Both the position numbers and the translations under genes were made by a program. The notes under the pieces were generated by a model. That model had not been told where the DNA came from. It did no database searches and worked only from the letters and a program-made list of their open reading frames with translations. This document shows positions 10,288 to 60,118 of a DNA stretch of 64,000 nucleotides, piece by piece; the first letter of the stretch is position 1; each line of letters opens with the position of its first letter. Source of the stretch: Pseudomonadota bacterium (GTDB lineage: Bacteria; Pseudomonadota; Alphaproteobacteria; Acetobacterales; Acetobacteraceae); contig JAJZFB010000037.1 in assembly GCA_021805545.1 (NCBI GenBank), positions 21,191 to 85,190 of the forward strand. The letters are read 5' to 3'.

Positions 10288-10485
10288 GTACGATTTTGAG
10301 ACGATAGGAAATTTGTCATAAGTTCTGCCTTTACACTTAGTGTAAATCAAAATTTTGCCATTGATGTGGCATTTTTGCCGCAGCTTTGTATTGCGTGTAG
10401 CGCATTCCACCCTTAGCCATGCGGCATGGTTGAAGAACCATTTGTGACAACAGGTTGGGGCAAAATGGCCTTTGAGAGGACGAAG

Positions 10486-11337
10486 ATGATCCGGGTTTCC
10501 GCCCGCACCATGCTTCTGGGCGCCGCTCTGGCCCTGTGTGCATTAACCGTGAGTGCCTTAACCGCCCGTGCGGCCAAGGCCGAAACCCTGCAACACCGCA
10601 GCCATGTGGCTTATACCCGCACATCGTACCACAGCTACCATACCTACCATAGCTATCACGCCTACCACAGCTATCACCATGTAGCGCAGTACACGGCCCG
10701 CCATTTCACCAGCAGCGTGCACCATGTTGCCTATCACCATGTTGCCTATCACCATGTTGCCTATCACCATGTTGCCTATGTGGAACACCGGCATGTGGCT
10801 TACCCGTATCATCGTTACATACATAACACTGCCTATTACCCGCGCGCCGCTGAGTTCCGCCGTTCCAGCTTGCAATGCGTGCCCTATGCGCGTGAAATCT
10901 CGCATATCGACATAACCGGAAATGCCTATCTCTGGTGGGCTGAGGCCGCTGGGCGCTACGCGCGCGGCAACATGCCGCAACAAGGTGCTGTGCTCAATTT
11001 CCGCGCCATTGGCCGCATGCCGCTGGGCCATGTCGCCGTGGTTACCGGCATTATCAACAGCCGCACCATTCTCGTTACCCAGGCCAACTGGGTGCCTGGC
11101 ACAATCACCAACGACGTGACGATACAGGATGTGTCGCCCAATAATAACTGGACGCTGGTGCGTGTGGAACTGGGTGATTCCAGCCGCTGGGGCGCGCCGT
11201 ACCCAACCTACGGGTTCATCTATGACCATCCCGCCATTGGCACTGTTATCGCCGCGAATGGCCAGAGCACCGAGGTGGCGGAAGCCCCGGCGCAGCCCGG
11301 CGTGAGTAACGGCGCGCCTAACCGCAACCTGCAATAA
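10486..11337 (+). CDS. secreted CHAP-domain peptidoglycan amidase/peptidase with His/Tyr-rich repeat linker
   Basis: ATG 10486 is preceded by GAGAGGA. Signal MIRVSARTMLLGAALALCALTVSALTARA. H/Y repeat region. C-terminal LQCVPYAREISHIDITGNAYLWW...GHVAVVTGI matches the CHAP Cys...His arrangement. Confidence 0.75.
   Translation: MIRVSARTMLLGAALALCALTVSALTARAAKAETLQHRSHVAYTRTSYHSYHTYHSYHAYHSYHHVAQYTARHFTSSVHHVAYHHVAYHHVAYHHVAYVEHRHVAYPYHRYIHNTAYYPRAAEFRRSSLQCVPYAREISHIDITGNAYLWWAEAAGRYARGNMPQQGAVLNFRAIGRMPLGHVAVVTGIINSRTILVTQANWVPGTITNDVTIQDVSPNNNWTLVRVELGDSSRWGAPYPTYGFIYDHPAIGTVIAANGQSTEVAEAPAQPGVSNGAPNRNLQ
10720..10779 (+). repeat. perfect 4 x 15-bp in-frame tandem repeat (CACCATGTTGCCTAT = HHVAY) inside the CHAP gene
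   Basis: Read directly: four identical units at 10720-10734, 10735-10749, 10750-10764 and 10765-10779. Preceded by a 6-12 nt periodic YH(S/T/A)YH tract at about 10626-10680. Confidence 0.95.
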
Positions 11338-14363: not shown

Positions 14364-14547
14364 GGACGGCCAGCAAATCAGCTTGAATCGAAGATTTAAG
14401 CTGATCGGATGAAATTGCTCTAGTGTGATGGTTCTGAAATTCGTGATATGAAATATCGCGAATTTCAGAAGCTGGATCACACTAGCTTATTGATTTTTCT
14501 AGTGTCCCGGTTCTGAAATCCAACGGATTTCAGAACCGGGACACTAG
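14364..14547. repeat. mosaic repeat locus 1: module D (inverted, 14364-14423) + A2 (14420-14485) + A1 (14499-14547)
   Basis: A1 is CTAGTGTCCCGGTTCTGAAATCC-AAC-GGATTTCAGAACCGGGACACTAG, a perfect 23-bp stem. A2 is a 66-nt hairpin, CTAGTGTGATGGTTCTGAAATTCG...CGAATTTCAGAAGCTGGATCACACTAG. Both recur elsewhere in the window. Confidence 0.9.
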
Positions 14548-14909
14548 GTGGAAAACTGCAATTCGAGCATCACGCCATGCGGGTCTTTGAGAAAAAGCTG
14601 AGTGACCCCCAGGCCGTTGAAACGGTTGAAGGGAATCTGCAGCGCGTCGAGATGGGCGATCATCGCTTCAGGGTCCGTGCAGCTCAGCGCCACATGGTCT
14701 ATGGGCCCGGTCGGGCCGGGTTCCGTATCGTATTGGCGCAGATGGATGATGGGCTGGTTATTGGCATCCAGCAGCCATTGCGATTGCTCCGGCGCCGTGG
14801 CCATGGGGCCTGTCTTGGCTGAGAGATTCAGCACCTTGGCGTAAAACGCGGCTGAGGCCAGCACATCGCGGCTGCGAATGTTCACATGATTGAGGCCTGT
14901 GACGCTCAT
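14544..14909 (-). CDS. VOC/glyoxalase-bleomycin resistance family protein
   Basis: ATG 14909-14907 gives MSVTGLNHVNIRSRDVLASAAFYAKVL...IDHVALSC...FLKDPHGVMLELQF, a typical VOC fold pattern. Its TAG stop lies in the last CTAG of repeat A1. Confidence 0.75.
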   Translation of the reverse strand: MSVTGLNHVNIRSRDVLASAAFYAKVLNLSAKTGPMATAPEQSQWLLDANNQPIIHLRQYDTEPGPTGPIDHVALSCTDPEAMIAHLDALQIPFNRFNGLGVTQLFLKDPHGVMLELQFST

Positions 14910-14949
14910 CTGGATCCTCCCCCGGCCGGCCGGTGTATCGCCCCTTGTG

Positions 14950-15795
14950 CTAAAGCCCGAATTTGGCCCGGTCAACCTGCGGCTGGCCTATATTCCCGGC
15001 TTCAAAGCTGGCGATTTGCTTGTGAATGAAATCATCCGGCGAGGCCGCCCATTCCAGCAAGGTTGCACGGACTTCAGGATGGGTGGGGATCATGATCCGC
15101 CCGGCCTCCATGCCCTCGGCAAGAATTGTGGCAACCTCCTCCTGGCTTTTCAGCCAGAGATGCCCGCCCGGGCCGCGCATGGGCACGTTCGCGGAGAAGA
15201 TTTTCATGCCATGCGGCGAGGTGGTCATGACCGGGCCAGGGCAAAAACAGCTCACCCGCACCCCCTTGGGGATGGCGTAGATGGCGAGATTCTCCGACAA
15301 GGAAATGACACCGGCCTTGGAGACGGCATACGGAATACGGCTGGCGGCGTAAGGATAAAGCCCGGCGAAGGAAGCGGTGTTGACGATATGGCCGCTGCCG
15401 CGCGCAAGCATTTTGGGCAGAAAGATTTCCAGGCTACGCACCATGCCCATCAGGTTGCAGCCAATCATGCGCTCCCACTCGCTGAAGGGGAAATCCTCTG
15501 GGTTGCCGCTATGCAGCAGCCCGGCATTATTCATGACGATGCCGATCTCGCCCAACGCCGCCTCGGCCGCGGCAGCGGCTTCGCGCAGAGAATCGCTGCT
15601 CGTGACATCGCAGCGCAGGGCAATGGCCTGCCCCCCCTCGGCCTGGATGAGCGCGGCAGCTTCCGTGGCGCCTTCAAAATCGAGATCGGCGATACCGACA
15701 CGCGCGCCGCGCCGGGCAAATTCACGCGCGATGGCGCGGCCAATATTACGCCCGGCGCCAAAAATCAGCGCGCTGTTGCCTGTGAATATGCCCAT
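14950..15795 (-). CDS. SDR family oxidoreductase
   Basis: 281 aa. GAGRNIGRAIA (TGxxxGxG-like) and NNAG motifs, and a YxxxK-type region (YAVSK). Confidence 0.85.
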   Translation of the reverse strand: MGIFTGNSALIFGAGRNIGRAIAREFARRGARVGIADLDFEGATEAAALIQAEGGQAIALRCDVTSSDSLREAAAAAEAALGEIGIVMNNAGLLHSGNPEDFPFSEWERMIGCNLMGMVRSLEIFLPKMLARGSGHIVNTASFAGLYPYAASRIPYAVSKAGVISLSENLAIYAIPKGVRVSCFCPGPVMTTSPHGMKIFSANVPMRGPGGHLWLKSQEEVATILAEGMEAGRIMIPTHPEVRATLLEWAASPDDFIHKQIASFEAGNIGQPQVDRAKFGL

Positions 15796-15970: not shown

Positions 15971-16702
15971 GTGGACGTGGCGGCGGGACGATCGACAATA
16001 GATGCGGCGGCGGCACAGATGCGCGCCATCGTGCTGGCCGCGGAGCCGGACGCGCTGCTGGGGAGCGAGGATGCGCTGCTGGCGCGCCTTGGTGTGTCGC
16101 GCAGCACGGTGAGGCAAATTGCAAGGCTGCTGGAGCGCGAGGGATTGCTGCGGGTAAAACGCGGCATCAATGGCGGTTATTATGGCACGCGCCCCACCAT
16201 TGCCACGGTGCAAACAGCGGTAAGCGCCTATCTGGAAACGCTGGGCATGGAGACGGAAGATCTGGCGACCGTGGCCTCGGTATTATGGGTGGAGGTCATG
16301 CGCCGCGCCGCGCTGCGGCCACGCGAACATGCCCTGCCCGTGGTTGAAACCTTGCGGCGCAAGCTGGAGCGGCTGAAACCAGCGGCGGCATTTGCCGAAA
16401 TAACCAGGCTGGAACAAGAATGCCAGCGCGCCGTGCTGGAACTGGCGCAAAGCCCCTATATCGCACTGATCTTCCAAATCAACGTGGCCTTCGCCGCGCG
16501 CCACTTCACCTCCCCGCCCGCGCCGGACGGCGGCGGAGAACACCGGACCTTCCTGCAGGCTTGGCGCCAAGCCAAAAAAATGGAACTGAGCGCCATAGAA
16601 GATGGCGATGCCGAGCTGGCGGCGCTGGCGGCACGGCATATGCGCAATCTGTGGCACCAACAGCTATGGAATGGCGCAACGCCCACAAAATTCAACCAAT
16701 GA
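15971..16702 (+). CDS. GntR/FadR-family transcriptional regulator
   Basis: 243 aa, GTG start after AGGACGAGG. LGSEDALLARLGVSRSTVRQIARLLEREGLLRVKRGINGGYY winged HTH plus a helical FCD-like C-domain. Divergent from the SDR gene. Confidence 0.8.
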   Translation: MDVAAGRSTIDAAAAQMRAIVLAAEPDALLGSEDALLARLGVSRSTVRQIARLLEREGLLRVKRGINGGYYGTRPTIATVQTAVSAYLETLGMETEDLATVASVLWVEVMRRAALRPREHALPVVETLRRKLERLKPAAAFAEITRLEQECQRAVLELAQSPYIALIFQINVAFAARHFTSPPAPDGGGEHRTFLQAWRQAKKMELSAIEDGDAELAALAARHMRNLWHQQLWNGATPTKFNQ

Positions 16703-16704
16703 GG

Positions 16705-16823
16705 TAGAGCGCGATTCAGACTTTCGAAGCGCGCGCAAAGCGAGCGCATCTCAAGTCATTAAACAAGATTATTGATTGCTCGCCCAAGCAAATTTAGCGT
16801 TTCCGATTGATCGGAAACTCTAG
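16705..16823. repeat. mosaic repeat locus 2: module B (16705-16759) + linker + short CTAG-ended hairpin (16795-16823)
   Basis: B is TAGAGCGCGATTCAGACTTTCGAAGCGCGCGCAAAGCGAGCGCATCTCAAGTCATT. The hairpin is TAGCGTTTCCGAT-TG-ATCGGAAACTCTAG. Confidence 0.8.
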
Positions 16824-17653
16824 CCGTGACGCAAGGCGGCAACCATGCCGCCATCGGCAAGAATATCGGTGCCCGAAATGAAGGACGCGTGATCCGAGAG
16901 CAGAAAAGCGGCAATGCTGGCAATTTCCAGCATTGTGCATTCACGCTTAAGCGGCGTGGCGGCAAGCAGCCTATGTTTACTGGGCGCATTCTTGAATTCG
17001 AGCGCCCCTTGCGGTGTGGCAATGAGGCCGGGGGAAAGCGAGACGATCCGCAACCCCCGCGCGCCCCAAGCCGTTGCCTGGCGCTGGCACATACGGTTGA
17101 GCGCGGCTTTGGAGAGGGCATAGGCCGCAGCGGAAGTCGCGCCCTCGCCCAGCGCTTCATGCAGAGATGGCAAAAACCCGTCCTCAAGAGGAGATTGCAG
17201 CAATGGCCAGAGCGTTTCTTCTACCGGGCCCATATGCGCGGCAGCGGACGAGATGAATAATGCGGCGGCGCCTGGTTGCATGACGGGAAGAAACGCCCGC
17301 GCCACCGTGGCGGCGCCGATGAGGTTGACAGCCATGATGGTGTGAAAATCGGCCATTGAAGGCGAAAGCCCCACCACATTGGCCAGGGCGCGCGCTTTTT
17401 TGGCCGTGGCGGCAAGGCGGGCAACATCCTCTGGTTTGGTGACATCGCAGACCTGCCCGGTAGCGTCATAGCCAGCATCGCGAAGCGCGAGAATCTGGCT
17501 GGTGAGCCGAGGTTCATCGCGGTCGGCGATGTAGAGGCGGTAATCCTGCCCCAGCCGCCGCGCCACTGCCATTCCCAGACCGCCAGCACCGATAACCACC
17601 GCCAGCGGCAGATCAGGCCGCGCGCTGCCGCCAATCTCATGGGCCATTTTCAC
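16820..17653 (-). CDS. SDR family oxidoreductase
   Basis: 277 aa. VIGAGGLGMAVARRL Rossmann motif and YALSKAAL catalytic region. Its TAG stop is inside the terminal CTAG of the hairpin at 16795-16823. Confidence 0.85.
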   Translation of the reverse strand: MKMAHEIGGSARPDLPLAVVIGAGGLGMAVARRLGQDYRLYIADRDEPRLTSQILALRDAGYDATGQVCDVTKPEDVARLAATAKKARALANVVGLSPSMADFHTIMAVNLIGAATVARAFLPVMQPGAAALFISSAAAHMGPVEETLWPLLQSPLEDGFLPSLHEALGEGATSAAAYALSKAALNRMCQRQATAWGARGLRIVSLSPGLIATPQGALEFKNAPSKHRLLAATPLKRECTMLEIASIAAFLLSDHASFISGTDILADGGMVAALRHG

Positions 17654-22212: not shown

Positions 22213-22282
22213 TTCAATTTCCCCTGCCGATGACGGGGCCAGTGCTACCGGGCCAGGCAAGGGGACGCTATCCGGTTTATTC

Positions 22283-22660
22283 CTACGTGGTTTCCCGTAG
22301 CAGCCCCGTAACGGCTTCAACCAATGCGCCGTCCATGATTGGCTTTTCCAGCAGCAGCCATATATCAGCCTCGCGCGCGCGCATCTTTAGGGCGGGGGTG
22401 GCGGCGCTGGTGAGCATGATCGAAGGAACCGCATGGTTCATGGCCCGCACCCGGCATAAAATCTCAAAACCATCCAGCCCAGGTAGATGGCACGCCAATA
22501 CCAGGCAGGCACAATCGGGCAATCTTGCATCGGCCAACAGCCCATCGCCATCACGATGCAGCCGCACATTCACCCCTTCCAACCGCAGCGCGAAGCCAAA
22601 TGCATCAAGCATCGCCGCGTCGTCATTCACCACCATCACCAGCGGCCCATTATCGCCCAT
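22283..22660 (-). CDS. single-domain receiver protein lacking the phospho-acceptor Asp (FixT-like pseudo-receiver)
   Basis: ATG 22660-22658. VMVVNDD acidic pocket, T (MLTSA) and K (LLEKP) are conserved. A gap-free alignment with the FixJ of this window puts Ala where the phospho-Asp sits ([11 protein letters not shown] versus LACHLPGLDG). Four Cys fall in 24 residues (DCACLVLACH...ILCRV). Confidence 0.65.
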   Translation of the reverse strand: MGDNGPLVMVVNDDAAMLDAFGFALRLEGVNVRLHRDGDGLLADARLPDCACLVLACHLPGLDGFEILCRVRAMNHAVPSIMLTSAATPALKMRAREADIWLLLEKPIMDGALVEAVTGLLRETT

Positions 22661-22690
22661 CAAAACACCCTTGCCCCACAAAGACCGCGC

Positions 22691-22958
22691 TTAGAGCCGA
22701 TGATTTTAGACCGGATCATGTTGTGATCCGGTCTAAAATCTGAATCCGGCTCTAAATCAATAAAATAGAGCGCGATTCAGACGTTCGAATCGCTCGCAAA
22801 GCGAGCGCATCTCAAGTCACCGCGTTCTAGTGTACCGGTTCTGAAATCCGTTGGATTTCAGAACCATGGTGGACACTAGAAAAATCAATAAGCTAGTGTG
22901 ATTCAGCTTCTGAAATTCGCGATATTTCATATCACGAATTTCAGAGCCATCACACTAG
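22691..22958. repeat. mosaic repeat locus 3: modules C (22691-22755) + B (22766-22830) + A1 (22827-22879) + A2 (22893-22958)
   Basis: All four modules are contiguous. B and A1 share one CTAG. A1 carries a 4-nt insertion in its right arm. The A2-A1 pair here is the reverse complement of the pair at 14420-14547. Confidence 0.9.
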
Positions 22959-27491: not shown

Positions 27492-27670
27492 TAGCGCGAT
27501 GACTTGAGATGCGCTCGCTCTGCGCGCGATTTGAAAGCCTGAATCGCGCTCAACTTCATTGATTGAGAGCCGGATTCAGATTTCAGAGCGGATCACAACA
27601 TGATCCGGCCTGAAATCATCCAGCTTGTGACGGTTCTGAAATCCAACGGATTTCAGAACCGGGACACTAG
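27492..27670. repeat. mosaic repeat locus 4: B (inverted, 27492-27553) + C (inverted, 27563-27627) + A1 (27624-27670)
   Basis: TAGCGCGATGACTTGAGATGCGCTCGCTCTGCGCGCGATTTGAAAGCCTGAATCGCGCTC, then TTGAGAGCCGGATTCAGATTTCAGAGCGGATCACAACATGATCCGGCCTGAAATCATC, then ..GACGGTTCTGAAATCCAACGGATTTCAGAACCGGGACACTAG. Confidence 0.9.
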
Positions 27671-28182
27671 CCTCGCAGCGCGGCGGGTGCCGCCGCAATC
27701 GCTTTATCGATCATTGCGGCACCGTCTTGGGGACCAAAATTTTCCGCCAGCACGGACGCAGAGGCCGCGGTGGCGGCATCTATGGCGATGGCGCGAATTT
27801 CGGCCAGAGCCGAGGCTTCCGCCGCCGCGATCCGCTCGATGGCCATGCGCTCGCGGCGCTTGGCCGCGGCTTCGGCTTCCGCAGCAAGGGCGGCAGCCAG
27901 CGAAGCGGCTTCCACATGCGCGGTTTCGAGGATGGCTTTAGCATCGGCTTCGGCTTGGGCCTGGCGGGCCTTGGCCTCGGCCAGCATGGCCTCGGCTTCG
28001 GCCTTCAGCGCCGCGGCTTCCGCAAGGGCGGCGCTAACGCTGGCGGTGCGGGCGTCGAGCAACGCCGCAATGGCACGCGCGACCTGCCGCCCCGCGATGA
28101 GGGCGAAGATGGCAACGGCGATGAAGACCCAAAACGCGCCGTGAAGGTAGAATATCTTCCCGGTGAGAGCTTCGTAGATCAT
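27667..28182 (-). CDS. atpF: F0F1 ATP synthase subunit b
   Basis: 171 aa. N-terminal TM, then a long Ala/Glu-rich coiled coil. Last gene of the F0 operon. Its TAG stop is inside the terminal CTAG of repeat A1. Confidence 0.85.
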   Translation of the reverse strand: MIYEALTGKIFYLHGAFWVFIAVAIFALIAGRQVARAIAALLDARTASVSAALAEAAALKAEAEAMLAEAKARQAQAEADAKAILETAHVEAASLAAALAAEAEAAAKRRERMAIERIAAAEASALAEIRAIAIDAATAASASVLAENFGPQDGAAMIDKAIAAAPAALRG

Positions 28183-31796: not shown

Positions 31797-31861
31797 TTAG
31801 TGCCGGATGATTTCAGGCCGGATCGCGCGCAAAGCGAGCGCATCTCAAGTCATCGCGCTAG
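31797..31861. repeat. mosaic repeat locus 5: chimera of the left half of C and the right half of B
   Basis: TTAGTGCCGGATGATTTCAGGCCGGATC (C-left) is fused to GCGCGCAAAGCGAGCGCATCTCAAGTCATCGCGCTAG (B-right). Confidence 0.8.
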
Positions 31862-39051: not shown

Positions 39052-40230
39052 ATGGCCAAAGGCAAAATGGCGTCTTTCGATTGGACGGACGCGCTGCGTC
39101 TTGAAGATTGCTTGAACGAGGAAGAGCGCGCCATACGCGATGCCGCCCATGCCTATGCCCAGGGCAAGCTGCAGCCGCGCGTGCTGAAGGCCTACCGCGC
39201 GGAAAAATTCGACCGCGAGATTATGAACGAGCTGGGCGAGCTGGGCTTTCTTGGCGCCACCCTCGCCACCCATGGCTGCGCCGATGTCTCCTACGTGGCC
39301 TACGGGCTGATCGCGCGCGAGGTGGAGCGCGTGGATAGCGGCTACCGCTCGGCTTTTTCCGTGCAATCCAGCCTGGTGATGTACCCCATTTATGCCTACG
39401 GCCAGCAGGCGCTGAAGGATGGGATTCTGCCCAAGCTGCGCACCGGCGAATATGTGGGCTGCTTTGGCCTGACAGAGCCGGATGCGGGATCCGACCCGGC
39501 CTCGATGCGCACACATGCGAAGAAAGTGGAGGGCGGCTATCTGCTCTCCGGCTCCAAAACCTGGATTACCAACGCGCCGATTGCCGATGTGTGCGTGGTG
39601 TGGGCCAAGGACGAGGCTGGGGATATTCGCGGCTTTGTTATCGAGCGCGGGGCAAAGGGGCTGGAGACGCCGAAGATCGAAGGCAAGCTCAGCCTGCGCG
39701 CCTCCATCACCGGTATGATTATGATGGACGAGGTGTTCGTGCCGGATGACGCGGTGCTGGATGTGAAGGGCCTGCGCGGGCCGTTCTCCTGCCTCAACAA
39801 TGCGCGCTACGGCATTGCCTGGGGCGCGCTGGGCGCGGCGGAATTCTGCTTCCACGCCGCGCGCGAGTACACGCTGGGGCGCAAGATGTTCGGCCGGCCG
39901 CTGGCCAATACGCAGCTTGTGCAGAAGAAACTCGCCGATATGCTCACCGAGATCACGCTTGGGCTGCATGGCGTGCTGCAACTGGGGCGGCTGATGGATG
40001 CGGGACAGGCCGCGCCGGAAATGATTTCTCTGCTCAAGCGCAATAATTGTGGCAAGGCGCTGGATATTGCCCGCGTTGCCCGCGACATGCATGGCGGCAA
40101 TGGCATTTCCGACGAGTACCATGTGATGCGGCACATGGTGAATTTGGAGACGGTGAACACCTATGAAGGCGCGCATGACGTGCATGCGCTCATCCTGGGC
40201 CGGGCGATTACCGGACTGGCCGCGTTCTAA
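39052..40230 (+). CDS. gcdH: glutaryl-CoA dehydrogenase (acyl-CoA dehydrogenase family)
   Basis: 392 aa. [19 protein letters not shown]-terminus, [10 protein letters not shown], and the C-terminal [20 protein letters not shown] pattern typical of GCDH. Confidence 0.85.
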
Positions 40231-55473: not shown

Positions 55474-58110
55474 ATGGTCACCAGTAACGATATTCGCGCC
55501 ACCTTCCTCAACTATTTCGGCCGCAACGGCCACCAGATCGTACCTTCGGCCCCCCTGGTGCCGCGCAACGACCCGACTCTGCTTTTCACCAGCGCGGGCA
55601 TGGTGCCGTTCAAAAACCTCTTCACCGGCCAGGAAAAACGCAATTACGTGCGCGCCACCTCGGCGCAAAAATGCGTGCGCGCCGGCGGCAAGCATAACGA
55701 TCTGGACAATGTGGGCTACACCGCCCGGCACCATACGTTCTTCGAGATGCTCGGCAATTTCTCCTTCGGCGACTACTTCAAGGAACAGGCCATCTTCCAC
55801 GCCTGGACCCTGCTGACCAAGGATTTCGGCCTGCCCAAGGAGAAACTGCTCATCACCGTGTACCACACGGATGACGAGGCGGCGGACCTCTGGAAAAAAA
55901 TCGCCGGCATCGGGGATGACAAGATCATCCGCATCCCCACCGACGATAATTTCTGGAAAATGGGCGATACCGGCCCCTGCGGCCCATGCTCGGAAATCTT
56001 CTACGATCACGGCCCCTCCATCCAAGGCGGCCCGCCCGGCACGCCGGATGAAGATGGCGACCGCTTCATCGAAATCTGGAACCTTGTGTTCATGCAGTAC
56101 GAGGAAGGCCCGCCCGGCACGCGCAATCCTCTGCCCCGCCCCAGCATCGACACCGGCATGGGCCTGGAGCGCTTCGCCGCCATCCTGCAAGGCAAGCACG
56201 ACAACTACGACACGGACACACTCCGCGCCCTCATCCTCGCCTCGGCGGAAGAAACTGCCCAAGACCCGGACGGCGCCTTCAAAACCAGCCACCGCGTGGT
56301 AGCGGACCATCTGCGCGCCGCCGCCTTCCTCATGGCCGATGGCGTGCTGCCCTCCAACGAAGGGCGCGGCTATGTGCTCCGCCGCATCATGCGCCGCGCC
56401 ATGCGCCACGCGCACATGATGGGCGCCAAAACCCCGCTCCTGCACCGCCTCGTCCCGGCGCTCACCCGCCAAATGGGCCAGGCCTACACCGAGCTGAGCC
56501 ATGCCGAGGCGCTGATTACCGAAACGCTGGAGCTGGAGGAAAACCGCTTCCGCTCGCTGCTCGACCGCGGCATCTCACTGCTGAAGGACGAATCCCTGAA
56601 CATCGCCAAAGGCGGCGCCCTGCCCGGCGATGTCGCCTTCAAGCTCTACGACACTTACGGCTTCCCGCTCGACCTCACGCAGGACGCGCTGCGCGAAGAG
56701 GGCAAGACCGTGGACGTGGCTGGGTTCGAAGCCGCCATGGCGGCGCAAAAAGCCCGCGCCCGCGCCGCCTGGGCCGGCTCTGGCGAGGCCGCGACCGAAG
56801 CCGTCTGGTTCGAACTGGAACAGCAGCTCGGCCACACGGAATTCCTCGGCTATTCCACTGAAGCCGCCGAGGGTGCCATTACCGCCATTATTGTGGACGG
56901 CCAGCCCGCGCAGGAAGCCCTGCCCGAGCAGACCGTCTATCTGCTGCTCAACCAAACCCCGTTCTATGCCGAATCCGGCGGCCAGGTGGGCGATACCGGT
57001 GTCATCACCGGCCCCGATAATCTGCGCATCCGCATTACCGACACGCAAAAGAAACTCGGCAGCCTGTTCGTGCATACCGGCACGGTGGAGGCAGGCACCG
57101 CCCGCATCGGCCAGCCCGTGCTGGCGGAGGTGGACCATGCCCGCCGTACCGCCATCCGCGCCCACCATTCCGCCACGCATTTGCTGCACGAGGCCCTGCG
57201 CCGCACGCTCGGCGCCCATGTTACGCAAAAAGGCTCGCTCAACGGGCCAGACCGGCTGCGTTTCGACATCGCCCAGCCCCGCCCCATAACAACCGCCGAA
57301 CTGGAAGAGGTGGAGCGCGAGGTAAATGCCCGCATCCGCGAAAACAGTGAGGTGATGACCCGCCTGATGACCCCGGAAGAGGCGGTGAACCACGGCGCCA
57401 TGGCCCTGTTCGGCGAAAAATACGGCGATGAAGTCCGCGTCCTCAGCATGGGCGCGCCCGAGGAGGACAAATCGGGCTGGTCCGTGGAGCTTTGCGGCGG
57501 CACCCATGTGTCGCGCACCGGCGATATCGGCCTGTTCCGCATTGTGTCTGAAGGTGCCGTCTCCGCCGGCATCCGCCGCATCGAGGCTCTGGCGGGTGAG
57601 GCCGCCGTCTCCGCCGTCGAGGATGAATCCCGCCTGCTGGCGGAAGCCGCCGCCACGGTAAAAGCCCCGCCAGCCGAGCTGCCCGCGCGCATCACCCAGC
57701 TCCAGGACGATAAAAAGCGCCTGGAACGTCAGGTGGCCGATTTGCAGAAAAAACTGGTCATGGCCACCGCCACCCAGTTCGAGGATGTGGGCGGCGTGAA
57801 AACCATATTGCGCAATGTGGGCGACATCCCCGCCAAGGAGCTGCGCGCCATCGCCACCGATCTGCTGAAAACCCTTGGCTCGGGCCTCGTTACCCTGGTG
57901 TCCACGGCCGATGATAAGGCCGCCATTGTTGTTGCTGTGTCGGATGATTTATCCGCCAGGCTCGGCGCCGTGGATTTGGTGCGCGCGGCGGCGGCGGCGG
58001 TGGGCGGCCAGGGCGGCGGCGGCAATAAAGCCGTGGCCCAGGCCGGAGGCCCCAATGGCAGCCAGTGGAAAGCCGCGCTCGAAGCCGTGCGCGGAGCGCT
58101 ACAGGCTTAG
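55474..58110 (+). CDS. alaS: alanine--tRNA ligase
   Basis: 878 aa. [28 protein letters not shown], editing-domain HSATHLLH, C-terminal CGGTHV. Confidence 0.95.
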
Positions 58111-58160
58111 AACGCGATGATCTGAGATGCGCGCGCTTCGAACGTCTGAAGCGCGCTCTC
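58108..58160. repeat. mosaic repeat locus 6: module B (inverted, internally deleted)
   Basis: TAGAACGCGATGATCTGAGATGCGCGCGCTTCGAACGTCTGAAGCGCGCTCT. The first TAG is the alaS stop codon. It is followed by the shared linker CCTTCATTGAG. Confidence 0.75.
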
Positions 58161-58172
58161 CTTCATTGAGTT

Positions 58173-58218
58173 ATACCAACGGCCATAAAGGATGGCTCAT
58201 CTTTATGGCCGTTGGTAT
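58173..58218. terminator. 18-bp perfect hairpin between convergent genes
   Basis: ATACCAACGGCCATAAAG-GATGGCTCAT-CTTTATGGCCGTTGGTAT. No U-tract on either side. Confidence 0.6.
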
Positions 58219-58280
58219 CGCGCGTGGGGCTGGCGGGGCGGCCACGCGCCAAGCATAAATCTGAGCCAGAAAACCAAACC

Positions 58281-58589
58281 CTACGGTGTGTTTTGGCGGA
58301 TCGCACGCACCATGGACGGCTTGGCGCGCGAGAGATTGGTGATCTCGTACATACTGCCGGAGCGGCATATTTGCAGCTTGTCTTGCGGCAGCCATTGCGT
58401 CACCGCCGTCCGCCCCGCGCCGGGCAGCACCTGGTAAGTCAGCCCCGCGCTAATGCGTAAAAACACGCCGGAACTGTTTTGCATCTTGGCCATGAAACAA
58501 CCGGGGGGTGGCGTCTGGGCCAGGGCCGCTGGCACGCCGCCCGCCACAAGGCAGGCCGCCAGCACTAAGTGTTTCAAGCCAGGCTTCAT
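58281..58589 (-). CDS. hypothetical secreted protein (102 aa)
   Basis: ATG 58589-58587 gives MKPGLKHLVLAACLVAGGVPAALA (signal peptide). No recognisable domain. The upstream part of track ORF 58281..58778 is discounted. Confidence 0.5.
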   Translation of the reverse strand: MKPGLKHLVLAACLVAGGVPAALAQTPPPGCFMAKMQNSSGVFLRISAGLTYQVLPGAGRTAVTQWLPQDKLQICRSGSMYEITNLSRAKPSMVRAIRQNTP

Positions 58590-58849
58590 TATGTTTCTCC
58601 CTATATATTTACATTCAAACAGACCAGCCATTCCGCCGCGCCCAAACTGGCGGGCGCCGCATAAGCATGGCGGTACGCTGCCCCGCCCGCTGGGCCAAGG
58701 GTCGGTTTCATATAATACACAACCGCGCCTGTTACAGCCCAAGCGTATCGCGGAAGATGAAGATGCCAGGCCCGGCAAAAATCACGGCACTCTTCTTGTG
58801 CAAGCCCATCCCCCTTGCGGCACCGCGCAATATGCGCGAAGGCAGGGCC

Positions 58850-59974
58850 ATGGGCACACTCGTAGCGCGCACGCCGCATAAGCGGCCGAAAATCGCAACG
58901 CTGGAGCTGGGCCGCTTCATTGCCGCTTTTTATGTCGTGCTCGCGCATCTGGTGCCAGACGTTAACAGCCGCGCCGCCCCCGGCGCCCTGCAAATCTGGC
59001 ACTGGATCGGCGTAACCGATGGCGCTGTCACGCTTGAATATTTCTTCGCCCTGTCCGGCTTTGTCATGGCCTGCTCACATTGGCAAGATTTTGGCACATT
59101 CGGCGCCCCCTTGCGTTTTTGGTGGAAGCGTATCCGCCGTATTTTCCCGATGTACTGGCTCGGCCTGCTGGTGCCCGTCTATTTCCTGTTCGGTGGGCTG
59201 GAGCCCGGCTATTTTATACGCGTAGCCACCCTGTTACCGGTGAATCTGAACGAACTCATTCCCCCGGCCTGGACGCTGCGGTTCGAGATGGCCTTCTATT
59301 TCATGTTCGGGCTGGGCATGCTGCCTTATGTGGGCAAGCCCATCCTCGCCATCTGGGTTGTGGCCACGCTGTGGCACTGGTGGCCCGCCCATGAGCTTGC
59401 GGCCATGCACCTACAGCAGCCCGCCGCGCTGGCCAAATGGGGCGGCCACGCAGGCCTGCATTTTGTCGATTTTCTTGGCATTTTCTTCTTTTGGGGCATG
59501 GCGGCGGGCTACATATTCGGCCGTTTTACACCTGGGCGGCGCCTTGCTCTGGTGCTCACGCTGGCTGGCGTCACCACCATTGCCGTGCTGCACAAATACA
59601 TCAGTTTCGGCGGCCCGGTACAAACCATCCCCATGTTCGTGCTCATTGGCTTCATCATCGCCACCACCATGCTCGGCTTCGCCTCGCTGGAACAGCACGA
59701 TATGCTACGCCTGCCCCGCATCGCGCTGTGGCTCGGCATAGTTTCTTACCCGCTTTACATCCTGCATGGCTCGCTGCTGATGGTCTTTTGGTATTTCATC
59801 ACCTTCAGCCATCTCAGCTCCGCAGGCGTGGCACTGCTCTTCCTCGGCCTGCTCATCTATCTCTTTACCTTCGCCTCGCTGGCCGCCTTTTTTATCGACC
59901 AGCCATTGCAGCGCTGGATGCGCCGCTGGGGCAAAGCCAAACCGGCAATGCGGGCCGCGCAAAACGCCGCCTAG
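58850..59974 (+). CDS. acyltransferase family 3 (OafA-like) membrane protein
   Basis: ATG 58850 (or 58832) inside track ORF 58508..59974. LELGRFIAAFYVVLAHL, about 10 TM, WTLRFEMAFY motif. Its TAG stop is inside the first CTAG of repeat A1. Confidence 0.75.
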   Translation: MGTLVARTPHKRPKIATLELGRFIAAFYVVLAHLVPDVNSRAAPGALQIWHWIGVTDGAVTLEYFFALSGFVMACSHWQDFGTFGAPLRFWWKRIRRIFPMYWLGLLVPVYFLFGGLEPGYFIRVATLLPVNLNELIPPAWTLRFEMAFYFMFGLGMLPYVGKPILAIWVVATLWHWWPAHELAAMHLQQPAALAKWGGHAGLHFVDFLGIFFFWGMAAGYIFGRFTPGRRLALVLTLAGVTTIAVLHKYISFGGPVQTIPMFVLIGFIIATTMLGFASLEQHDMLRLPRIALWLGIVSYPLYILHGSLLMVFWYFITFSHLSSAGVALLFLGLLIYLFTFASLAAFFIDQPLQRWMRRWGKAKPAMRAAQNAA

Positions 59975-60118
59975 TGTGATGGTTCTGAAATCCAGCGGAT
60001 TTCAGAACCGGGACCCTAGACTCTGACCGGCTTAGGCTGATCTGGTTCTGTTTAGCGAGCAATTTCATTGGTTTGGATGACCCCGGCGATTCAATCCAAA
60101 CCAATGCTCTGGCCTTCC
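59971..60118. repeat. mosaic repeat locus 7: A2/A1 hybrid hairpin (59971-60019) + spacer + module D (60053-60118)
   Basis: CTAGTGTGATGGTTCTGAAATCC-AGC-GGATTTCAGAACCGGGACCCTAG, then TAGCGAGCAATTTCATTGGTTTGGATGACCCCGGCGATTCAATCCAAACCAATGCTCTGGCCTTCC. Confidence 0.85.

Follow-up and report, generated by a model that had tools for sequence, protein, structure and literature searches.

Probable target-directed placement of IS630-type miniature elements at the stop codons of five genes in an Acetobacteraceae contig

Five stop codons within repeat termini

We have analysed a stretch of 64,000 nucleotides from an Acetobacteraceae bacterium (GenBank assembly GCA_021805545.1, contig JAJZFB010000037.1, positions 21,191 to 85,190 of the forward strand), hereafter referred to as the window. 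It carries palindromic repeat modules of 43-135 nt, inside which no open reading frame (ORF) fits, grouped in seven arrays, five of which abut a stop codon by our own count. The genes concerned are those of a VOC/glyoxalase-family protein, an SDR protein, the ATP synthase b subunit (atpF) and an acyltransferase, together with alaS (Table 1). Based on a mechanical ORF list for the coordinates and on Pfam for the protein identities, all five were found to end in TAG within the terminal (C)TAG of a module. This agreed, coordinate by coordinate, with the initial annotation of the window, which had placed the five stops in module termini. It had also pointed out that other TAG stops lack a repeat, and indeed 12 of the 17 called TAG stops carry none.

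The VOC stop (complement of 14544-14546) coincides with the last CTA of the A1 module at 14499-14547 and is made of the junction TA plus the terminal G of A1. The gene atpF is the last of an atpB-E-F'-F cluster and the second of the b'/b pair, as in the alphaproteobacterial arrangement; its stop (complement of 27667-27669) corresponds to the last CTA of the A1 copy at 27622-27670. The acyltransferase stop lies in the first CTAG of a third A1 copy (59971-60019), and a partial inverted B module (58108-~58160) provides, with its first three bases, the alaS stop. The SDR stop adjoins the end of a small hairpin (16795-16823), its G being supplied by the array at 16690-16823. An exact-protein look-up with the VOC product gave no match, probably owing to the choice of start codon. 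A sixth candidate, ORF 22230-22694(+), which ends in the TAG of a C module, was rejected as spurious: it had no family match and the opposite strand encodes a response-regulator receiver.

The A1 copy beside the VOC gene is a 49-nt perfect palindrome that includes both CTAG (CTAGTGTCCCGGTTCTGAAATCC-aac-GGATTTCAGAACCGGGACACTAG). RNA folding gave stem energies of -24 to -42 kcal/mol for the modules, the lowest value being that of this copy, which was predicted to form a perfect 23-bp stem, the UAG being paired at the foot (z = -11). The stems of the initial annotation were thereby confirmed; the B fragment at alaS folded poorly (z = -1.3).

IS630-type ends and empty sites in relatives

We have scanned one genome per GTDB species for CTAGTGTNNNGGTTCTGAAAT. 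The scan returned 76 loci, nearly all of them alphaproteobacterial and spread over many orders, with hosts among the Acetobacteraceae, Rhodospirillales, Rhizobiales, Kiloniellales, Magnetospirillum and others. Most loci were two-hairpin units of ~130-165 nt, and three (L027, L069 and L077) were full-length insertion sequences (ISs) with an HTH and DDE_3 transposase. In L027, from Roseomonas pecuniae, CTAGTGTNNNGGTTCTGAAAT is the end of a ~1.18-kb element flanked as C-TA/GTGTCCC...GGACAC/TA-G, whose 374-aa product has HTH_29/HTH_32 and DDE_3 domains. The L069 copy forms the left end of an IS that carries HTH_29 and DDE_3 ORFs and has the flanks ccC-TA/GTGTCC...GGACAG/TA-Gagc. A related IS on a Roseomonas mucosa plasmid, annotated as "IS630 family transposase", ends in ...CGAACTTCGGATTCGGGACAC/TAG.

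The 21-nt arm of the window A1 module (CTAGTGTCCCGGTTCTGAAAT) was identical to the L027 end and aligned to the left inverted repeat of L069 at 20 of 21 positions. Because these arms are identical to the end of an IS630-family IS, the A modules are predicted to be MITEs, i.e., miniature inverted-repeat transposable elements, built from palindromised IS630-type ends. The second hairpin of composite MITEs in the Acetobacteraceae metagenome-assembled genome OZ255628.1 resembled the right end of the L077 IS. The A modules would have been mobilised in trans by a cognate transposase; presence/absence polymorphism between close relatives is consistent with recent mobility, though no proof of it. Outside the repeats, the best DNA matches among GTDB representatives had 73-75% identity. 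A literature search returned no paper containing the arm sequences, its matches being unrelated.

The L069 and L027 ISs are both flanked by TA...TA. The left flank of L069 reads CTAG and the right flank GTAG/TAGA, with only TA (or TAG), not CTAG, being repeated. We have also noticed that the transposase frames of the ISs in L027 (2849-4031) and L077 (447-1532) run through the terminal inverted repeat to a TAG composed of the duplicated target TA and the flanking G, i.e., a stop taken from the target, and that the L069 frame ends at a TGA inside the repeat.

The source organism occurs in mine-drainage and wastewater metagenomes, and we have aligned assembled contigs of its relatives to the window. 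Two of these are referred to here as the ~95% and the ~85% relative, the latter being present at a depth of ~45 in the same metagenomes. At the acyltransferase gene, the ~95% relative lacks exactly 59970-60014 (45 nt) and reads GCC GCC TAG ACT, CCTAG fitting both sides. This difference equals a 43-nt element plus TA. The alignment is ambiguous by 5 nt, so that a longer duplication is not excluded by the site alone; a 4-bp duplication is excluded because L069 repeats only TA (or TAG). The acyltransferase element thus appears to occupy a C-TA-G that existed before it and already served as the stop.

The other four genes were compared with the ~85% relative. At the SDR gene, 16658-16820 is replaced by 36 nt (...AAG CGT TAG CCG TG); the stop there is TAA (GGC TAA on the minus strand), its TA being common with the TAG of the convergent GntR-family gene. 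The VOC gene ends in LELQFER-TAA with no repeat, in place of LELQFST-TAG at the same codon of the window. Likewise, atpF reads CGA GGC TAA GGG.. with no repeat where the window has CGA GGC TAG, and alaS ends in ALQA-TAA without a repeat where the window has ALQA-TAG, in both cases at the same codon. On the minus strand, the atpF array has ...GCGC-TA-A-GAC at its far end, and 27492-27669 is thus bracketed by TA...TA; this therefore fits the whole array being seated in the TA of GGC TAA G.., with the displaced A on the far side.

In all five empty-site comparisons, the junction was the TA of the stop codon. We infer from these alignments that the change was insertion rather than precise loss, and that it would have converted TAA to TAG. 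The suggestion that the insertion itself may have supplied the present stop was therefore supported in part: the four sites with TAA in the ~85% relative would owe only the G to the element, and the empty acyltransferase allele already had TAG. The initial annotation had regarded the same TAG at empty sites, with no sign of insertion, as evidence against its proposal; the empty sites instead place the insertion precisely on the TA of the stop.

Target choice and competing explanations

With 64 genes called in the window (31 TGA, 17 TAG and 16 TAA stops), we have calculated how often arrays should fall on stops by chance, taking as permissible targets the non-coding and stop-codon sites, each equally likely. 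If any TA can be a target, stops make up 10% of the permissible sites of the window, and at least five of seven arrays at stops has P = 2e-4. With YTAR as target, the share of stops rises to 25% and P to 0.012. With CTAG, six of the seven permissible sites are stops, and the observed placement is not significant. CTAG is strongly avoided in the window, with 26 copies where base composition predicts 221 and a Markov estimate 38; the repeats contain 13 of these copies, and tRNA genes two. Five of seven arrays at stops is thus not improbable under YTAR or CTAG, because the motif is rare outside stop codons.

The other genomes behaved similarly. Among the 76 element termini, 13 coincided with the TAG stop of a high-scoring ORF and 63 were not at stops. 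Pfam domains were found in nine of the ten stop-coincident ORFs tested (ABC_tran, Amino_oxidase, SPOR, Glycos_transf_1, Fe-S_biosyn, GST, Redoxin, Acyltransferase and Peptidase_M17). The other 34 genes reading toward an element within 400 nt had scattered distances (7 to 383 nt). Across loci, P was 1.5e-4 under the TA-only null, with 5.2% of permissible TAs being stops, and 0.15-0.21 under YTAR or CTAG availability (~13%). Of 22 intact composite elements, 20 have G as the next base at the far end, which the search pattern leaves unconstrained; C-TA-G thus appears to be the usual target.

The preference for (C)TAG or TA that the initial annotation had considered is supported. The comparison of module ends at stops with expectation gave a divided answer: there is an excess over the TA-only model, both in the window (P = 2e-4) and across loci (P = 1.5e-4), and none over YTAR or CTAG across loci. 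Among the precedents it had named, the YTAR targets of IS5-type elements did not apply, as L069 repeats only TA (or TAG) and the transposases are of the DDE_3 type; the fitting precedent is IS630/Tc1-mariner, with TA duplication and CTAG preference.

We have observed arm identity with IS630 ends, empty sites, insertion at the TA of the stop and generality across genomes. We consider it quite probable that IS630-type MITEs landed on the TAs of stop codons, the placement following from target choice and not from a new regulatory device. The transposase would insert at TA and duplicate it, preferring a TA within CTAG or, more loosely, YTAR. Because G is the first base of the element proper and C its last, each insertion would yield ...N-TA-G(element)C-TA-N.... 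At a stop codon, the old TA and the G of the element would make TAG, for a gene on either strand since the element ends are symmetric. A TAA stop would become TAG and a TAG stop would stay TAG; the protein would be unchanged and, hence, such insertions would be about as harmless as any. In this 62% G+C genome, the TA of stop codons would represent a large share of the usable targets, because TA is scarce, CTAG very scarce and coding insertions are lost. Target preference together with exclusion from coding sequence is enough for the pattern, and selection for 3' hairpins is not needed.

Each insertion would also regenerate CTAG at both ends, where later elements could land and build arrays. 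Neighbouring modules have one CTAG/TA in common (E/A2 at 14420-14423 and B/A1 at 22827-22830), which therefore fits nested insertion into a regenerated target. As to the order of these insertions, it is plausible, though unproven, that less choosy TAGAGC-ended modules entered TAA stops and made CTAG, with CTAG-preferring A elements coming next. Secondary deletions after insertion appear to have occurred, as suggested by the linker at 16690-16704 and the truncated D module.

Several points weigh against this reading. The IS630 match holds for the A modules only, no autonomous partner having been found for the B, C, D, E and F modules. The four empty sites in the ~85% relative read TTAA, CTAA, CTAA and GTAA, not CTAG; since four of the five empty sites are thus YTAA or GTAA, a CTAG preference cannot be strict, at least for B/C/D/E modules. 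The comparator for these four sites is the ~85% relative and not an ancestor. At the VOC gene, six of the eight bases adjacent to the junction differ in it, and because of this divergence the ancestral VOC stop is uncertain. A control for stop-codon conservation at an unoccupied CTAG stop (29051), across which the contig of the relative aligned with six differences, was uninformative. At 43 nt and with a loop of 3-4 nt, an element seems too small for its two ends to be synapsed by a transposase, and two-hairpin elements may give rise to solo hairpins by deletion; slippage deletion between the CCTAG repeats could account equally well for the 45-nt polymorphism. Finally, the genes were called by a home-made codon log-odds model and not by a standard gene finder, and the excess at stops persists against the TA-only model, so that some contribution of selection is possible.

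As an extension of the proposed target choice, the family may be adapted to using stop codons as a safe harbour, systematically turning TAA into TAG. It draws on the L027 and L077 transposase stops built from target TA plus G, on the symmetric ends that keep the stop of the host gene and on the re-creation of CTAG; we regard it as a rather doubtful idea. If true, stops would be buried in stems of up to 23 bp in many genes across Alphaproteobacteria, and RF1 termination, ribosome rescue or mRNA decay could be measurably affected.

Selection may instead keep hairpins at gene ends, where 3' stem-loops terminate transcription or protect mRNA from 3' exonucleases, as the initial annotation had also envisaged. 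The very stable stems (-24 to -42 kcal/mol) immediately 3' of five genes, the effects of REP and Correia-type repeats on mRNA stability or processing (PMC2229807) and the excess over the TA-only model would be compatible with this. However, hairpin selection would tolerate any nearby position, whereas the base-exact match to the TA of the stop is a signature of insertion, and the excess disappears across loci under the YTAR/CTAG model. Of the 76 copies elsewhere, 63 are not at stops. The repeats are absent at four genes in the ~85% relative, and the element is absent at the fifth in the ~95% relative; the ~85% relative has a GC-rich hairpin of its own after atpF. The VOC, atpF and acyltransferase hairpins lack the U-tract that a Rho-independent terminator would have right after its G+C-rich stem in the direction of transcription, the next bases in gene sense being GAAAAAUCAAU, AGCUGGAUGAU and ACUCUGACCGG, respectively, and a terminator scan made no call on the relevant strand at these three hairpins. 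In the only metatranscriptomes linked to the study, no contig covered atpF or the region 3' of it. Selection of this kind is unlikely to explain the placement; a further influence on mRNA stability, or on termination where the UAG is base-paired, is possible.

Modular mosaic palindrome arrays in intergenic DNA recall BIMEs, and 4-bp CTAG/YTAA duplications were reported for the IS5-like MITEPsy1 (PMC3189936). The modules could thus be REP/BIME palindromes spread by RAYT (TnpA-REP), or IS5-type MITEs with a 4-bp YTAR duplication. Both possibilities are highly improbable, because ISs encoding DDE_3 (IS630-family) transposases have ends identical to the arms. An IS5-type MITE would have a 4-bp direct repeat of its target and IS5-like terminal repeats; L069 repeats TA or TAG and not CTAG, and its transposase is DDE_3, not IS5-type. 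The IS630-type arms and the duplication-compatible junction at the empty site do not fit REP/BIME, which would be associated with a RAYT gene and show no target duplication, and no RAYT or IS5 transposase was seen beside the copies examined, although no systematic search for RAYT was made.

Pure coincidence, i.e., intergenic repeats of which five ends touch stops by chance, is barely credible in spite of there being only seven arrays and many TAG stops (17 of 64 called genes), since it is rejected for random TA positions by the 5/7 placement (P = 2e-4), by the same spike at distance zero elsewhere (13 of 76 independent termini, P = 1.5e-4) and by empty sites with the junction exactly at the stop; all that survives of it is chance under the target motif, and this is the target-choice explanation itself.

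Array architecture, known systems and significance

The repeat features of the window are collected in Table 1. The two-hairpin unit beside the VOC gene (128 nt) is composed of A2 (14420-14485), a 13-nt linker (cttattgattttt) and A1 (14499-14547), and 88 nt of it are 98% complementary to 22871-22958 in the inverted copy at 22827-22958. The B/C unit has ends of the types TAGAGCC.. and TAGARCGCG.., with partial copies at 16705-16763, 31798-31861 and 58108-58160. Smaller TAG-ended palindromes (E, D, F and one at 60054-60112) occupy the same intergenic regions. Rfam at gathering score detected three tRNAs in the whole window and matched no module, and no transposase gene was seen in the window.

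Table 1. Positions of the five genes and of the repeat features in the window
Feature	Position	Strand	Remarks
VOC/glyoxalase-family gene	14544-14975	-	Pfam Glyoxalase/VOC; start at 14909 in the codon gene model
SDR gene	16820-17653	-	Pfam adh_short; stop TAG, complement of 16820-16822
atpF, ATP synthase b subunit	27667-28182	-	Pfam ATP-synt_B; stop TAG
alaS	55474-58110	+	Pfam AlaRS; stop TAG 58108-58110
Acyltransferase gene	58508-59974	+	Pfam Acyl_transf_3; start at 58850 in the codon gene model; stop TAG 59972-59974
E module, palindrome with TAGAGCAAT-type end	14370-14423		CTAG 14420-14423 common with A2; left end decayed
A2 module, left half of the putative A1/A2 MITE	14420-14485		followed by 13-nt AT-rich linker 14486-14498
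A1 module, right half of the putative two-hairpin MITE	14499-14547		arm CTAGTGTCCCGGTTCTGAAAT identical to L027 IS end
Array: linker-like 16690-16704, partial B 16705-~16763, second linker, truncated D 16782-16823	16690-16823		
Complete B/C two-hairpin MITE (putative): C 22692-22755, linker, B 22766-22829	22692-22829		no stop codon abutted
Second complete A1-linker-A2 MITE (putative), inverted relative to 14420-14547	22827-22958		one TA (22828-22829) common with the B/C element
Complete inverted B/C two-hairpin MITE (putative)	27492-27621		126 nt, 89%; outer end ...GCGC TA A GAC on the minus strand
Solo A1 hairpin, inner end decayed	27622-27670		adjoins atpF stop
Internally deleted B/C derivative	31798-31861		flanks T-TA ... 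TA-G; no stop codon abutted
Array: partial inverted B (58108-~58160), linker, F palindrome 58172-58219 with TACCAACGG arms	58108-58219		
Solo A1 hairpin	59971-60019		43-nt element plus duplicated TA; CCTAG on both sides

The small modules have TA-G or TA ends (TAGAGCAAT in E, GCCCAAGCAAATTTAG.. in D, TACCAACGG in F and TAGCGAGCAAT at 60054-60112). Several of these four (14370-14423, 16782-16823, 58172-58219 and 60054-60112) recur on other metagenome contigs, the E module being also found as loose ends of such contigs. In the D module beside the SDR stop, an internal CTA marks the point of truncation. In the mine-drainage runs, contig depth reached 700-1000, against ~50 nearby, at 57973-58024 (in the 3' part of alaS) and at 58207-58258 (just past the F palindrome), stretches that are common to many community sequences.

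The MITEs have an unusual architecture, their left and right IS ends, each palindromised, being separated by a 13-nt AT-rich linker. It occurs at 14420-14547 and 22692-22958 of the window and in L003, L013, L021, L011, L048 and others. Some linkers (AATCAAACATTTG, AATCAAATGCTTA) fit the IHF consensus WATCAANNNNTTR, and the linkers of the window itself fit not quite. In L007 (Acidiphilium iwatense), on the minus strand ~160 nt past the match, a solo arm (CTAGTGTGGCGGTTCTGAAGTTCC) comes after a complete two-hairpin MITE, the two having CTAG in common. This arm lies ~40 nt upstream of a glgC-like start (MARENGLTKPLSRNAMAYVLAGGRGSRL), so such elements also occur in 5' regions.

On its left side, the array at 16690-16823 supplies the C-terminal codons and the stop codon of the convergent GntR-family gene. 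Here, repeat-linker sequence (16691-16702) provides the last three codons and TGA of this GntR/FCD-family regulator (..K FNQ*). In the ~85% relative, the regulator ends in ..K R*, its TAG overlapping the SDR stop. A repeat-associated deletion thus seems to have rewritten the C-terminus of the regulator. Elsewhere in the window, two convergent genes overlap by 4 nt at CTAA (40227-40230; TAA and TAG on the plus and minus strands, respectively), and TAGAACGCGG after this overlap matches, probably by chance, the first 10 nt of a B-module end. At 10720-10779, at least four perfect tandem copies of a 15-nt unit (CACCATGTTGCCTAT) lie within the called ORF 10465-11337 (+).

IS630/ISY100 and Tc1/mariner elements insert almost exclusively at TA, which they duplicate, and IS630 prefers CTAG (PMC2170065, citing Tenzen et al. 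1990, 1991). The elements described here share with IS630 (Shigella sonnei), ISY100 (Synechocystis) and Tc1/mariner the insertion at and duplication of TA, the C-TA-G flanks and, in the full-length relatives, the HTH and DDE_3 domains. Unlike IS630/ISY100, the window has only transposase-less derivatives (43-135 nt) with two palindromised ends and a 13-nt AT-rich linker, some of them inserted in YTAA. The pneumococcal repeat unit RUP is a MITE thought to be mobilised by IS630-Spn1, and it inserts at TA (PMC2229807). It is likewise a small non-coding TA-inserting element whose terminal repeats match an IS630-family IS, but it belongs to another host phylum, is unrelated in sequence and consists of a single 107-bp unit reported to favour IS elements, not stop codons.

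The Correia/NEMIS elements of Neisseria are TA-duplicating MITEs that form strong RNA stem-loops near genes, the central AT-rich segment being an IHF site in Correia (PMC2229807). They resemble the window elements in TA duplication, long terminal repeats, stem-loops beside genes and a central AT-rich segment, and differ in sequence and host; moreover, the Correia parent transposase is unknown. The 100-nt MITEPsy1 of Pseudomonas syringae inserts at CTAG or YTAA (PMC3189936). Its target motif is alike, but it is of the IS5 family, with a 4-bp duplication, whereas the parent family here is IS630 with TA duplication.

The same kind of overlap between element end and stop codon has been described for QMITE1/QMITE2 of Coxiella burnetii, copies of which overlap the 3' ends of functional genes (ubiB, kdgK and CBU_2020) by 1-3 bp or more (PMC5896051). 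Those elements and their parent IS family are different, and the part of PMC5896051 that deals with these overlaps offers no target-site explanation or empty-site comparison. In the literature on MITE ends and stop codons, only anecdotal overlaps were found, with no stated link.

The proposed target choice would give an ordinary cause to stop codons at the feet of long stems and would guard against reading them as a regulatory signal. It would also tie an undescribed, widespread alphaproteobacterial family of two-hairpin MITEs to an identifiable IS630-type parent. The window offers candidate examples of a transposon changing the identity of a stop (TAA to TAG) without a change in the protein, and of array growth in which a regenerated target is used again. 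The elements lengthen 3' untranslated regions by 45-180 nt, which matters when interpreting transcript ends, and in populations from acid-mine drainage and wastewater they are markers of recent differences between strains at the ends of genes.

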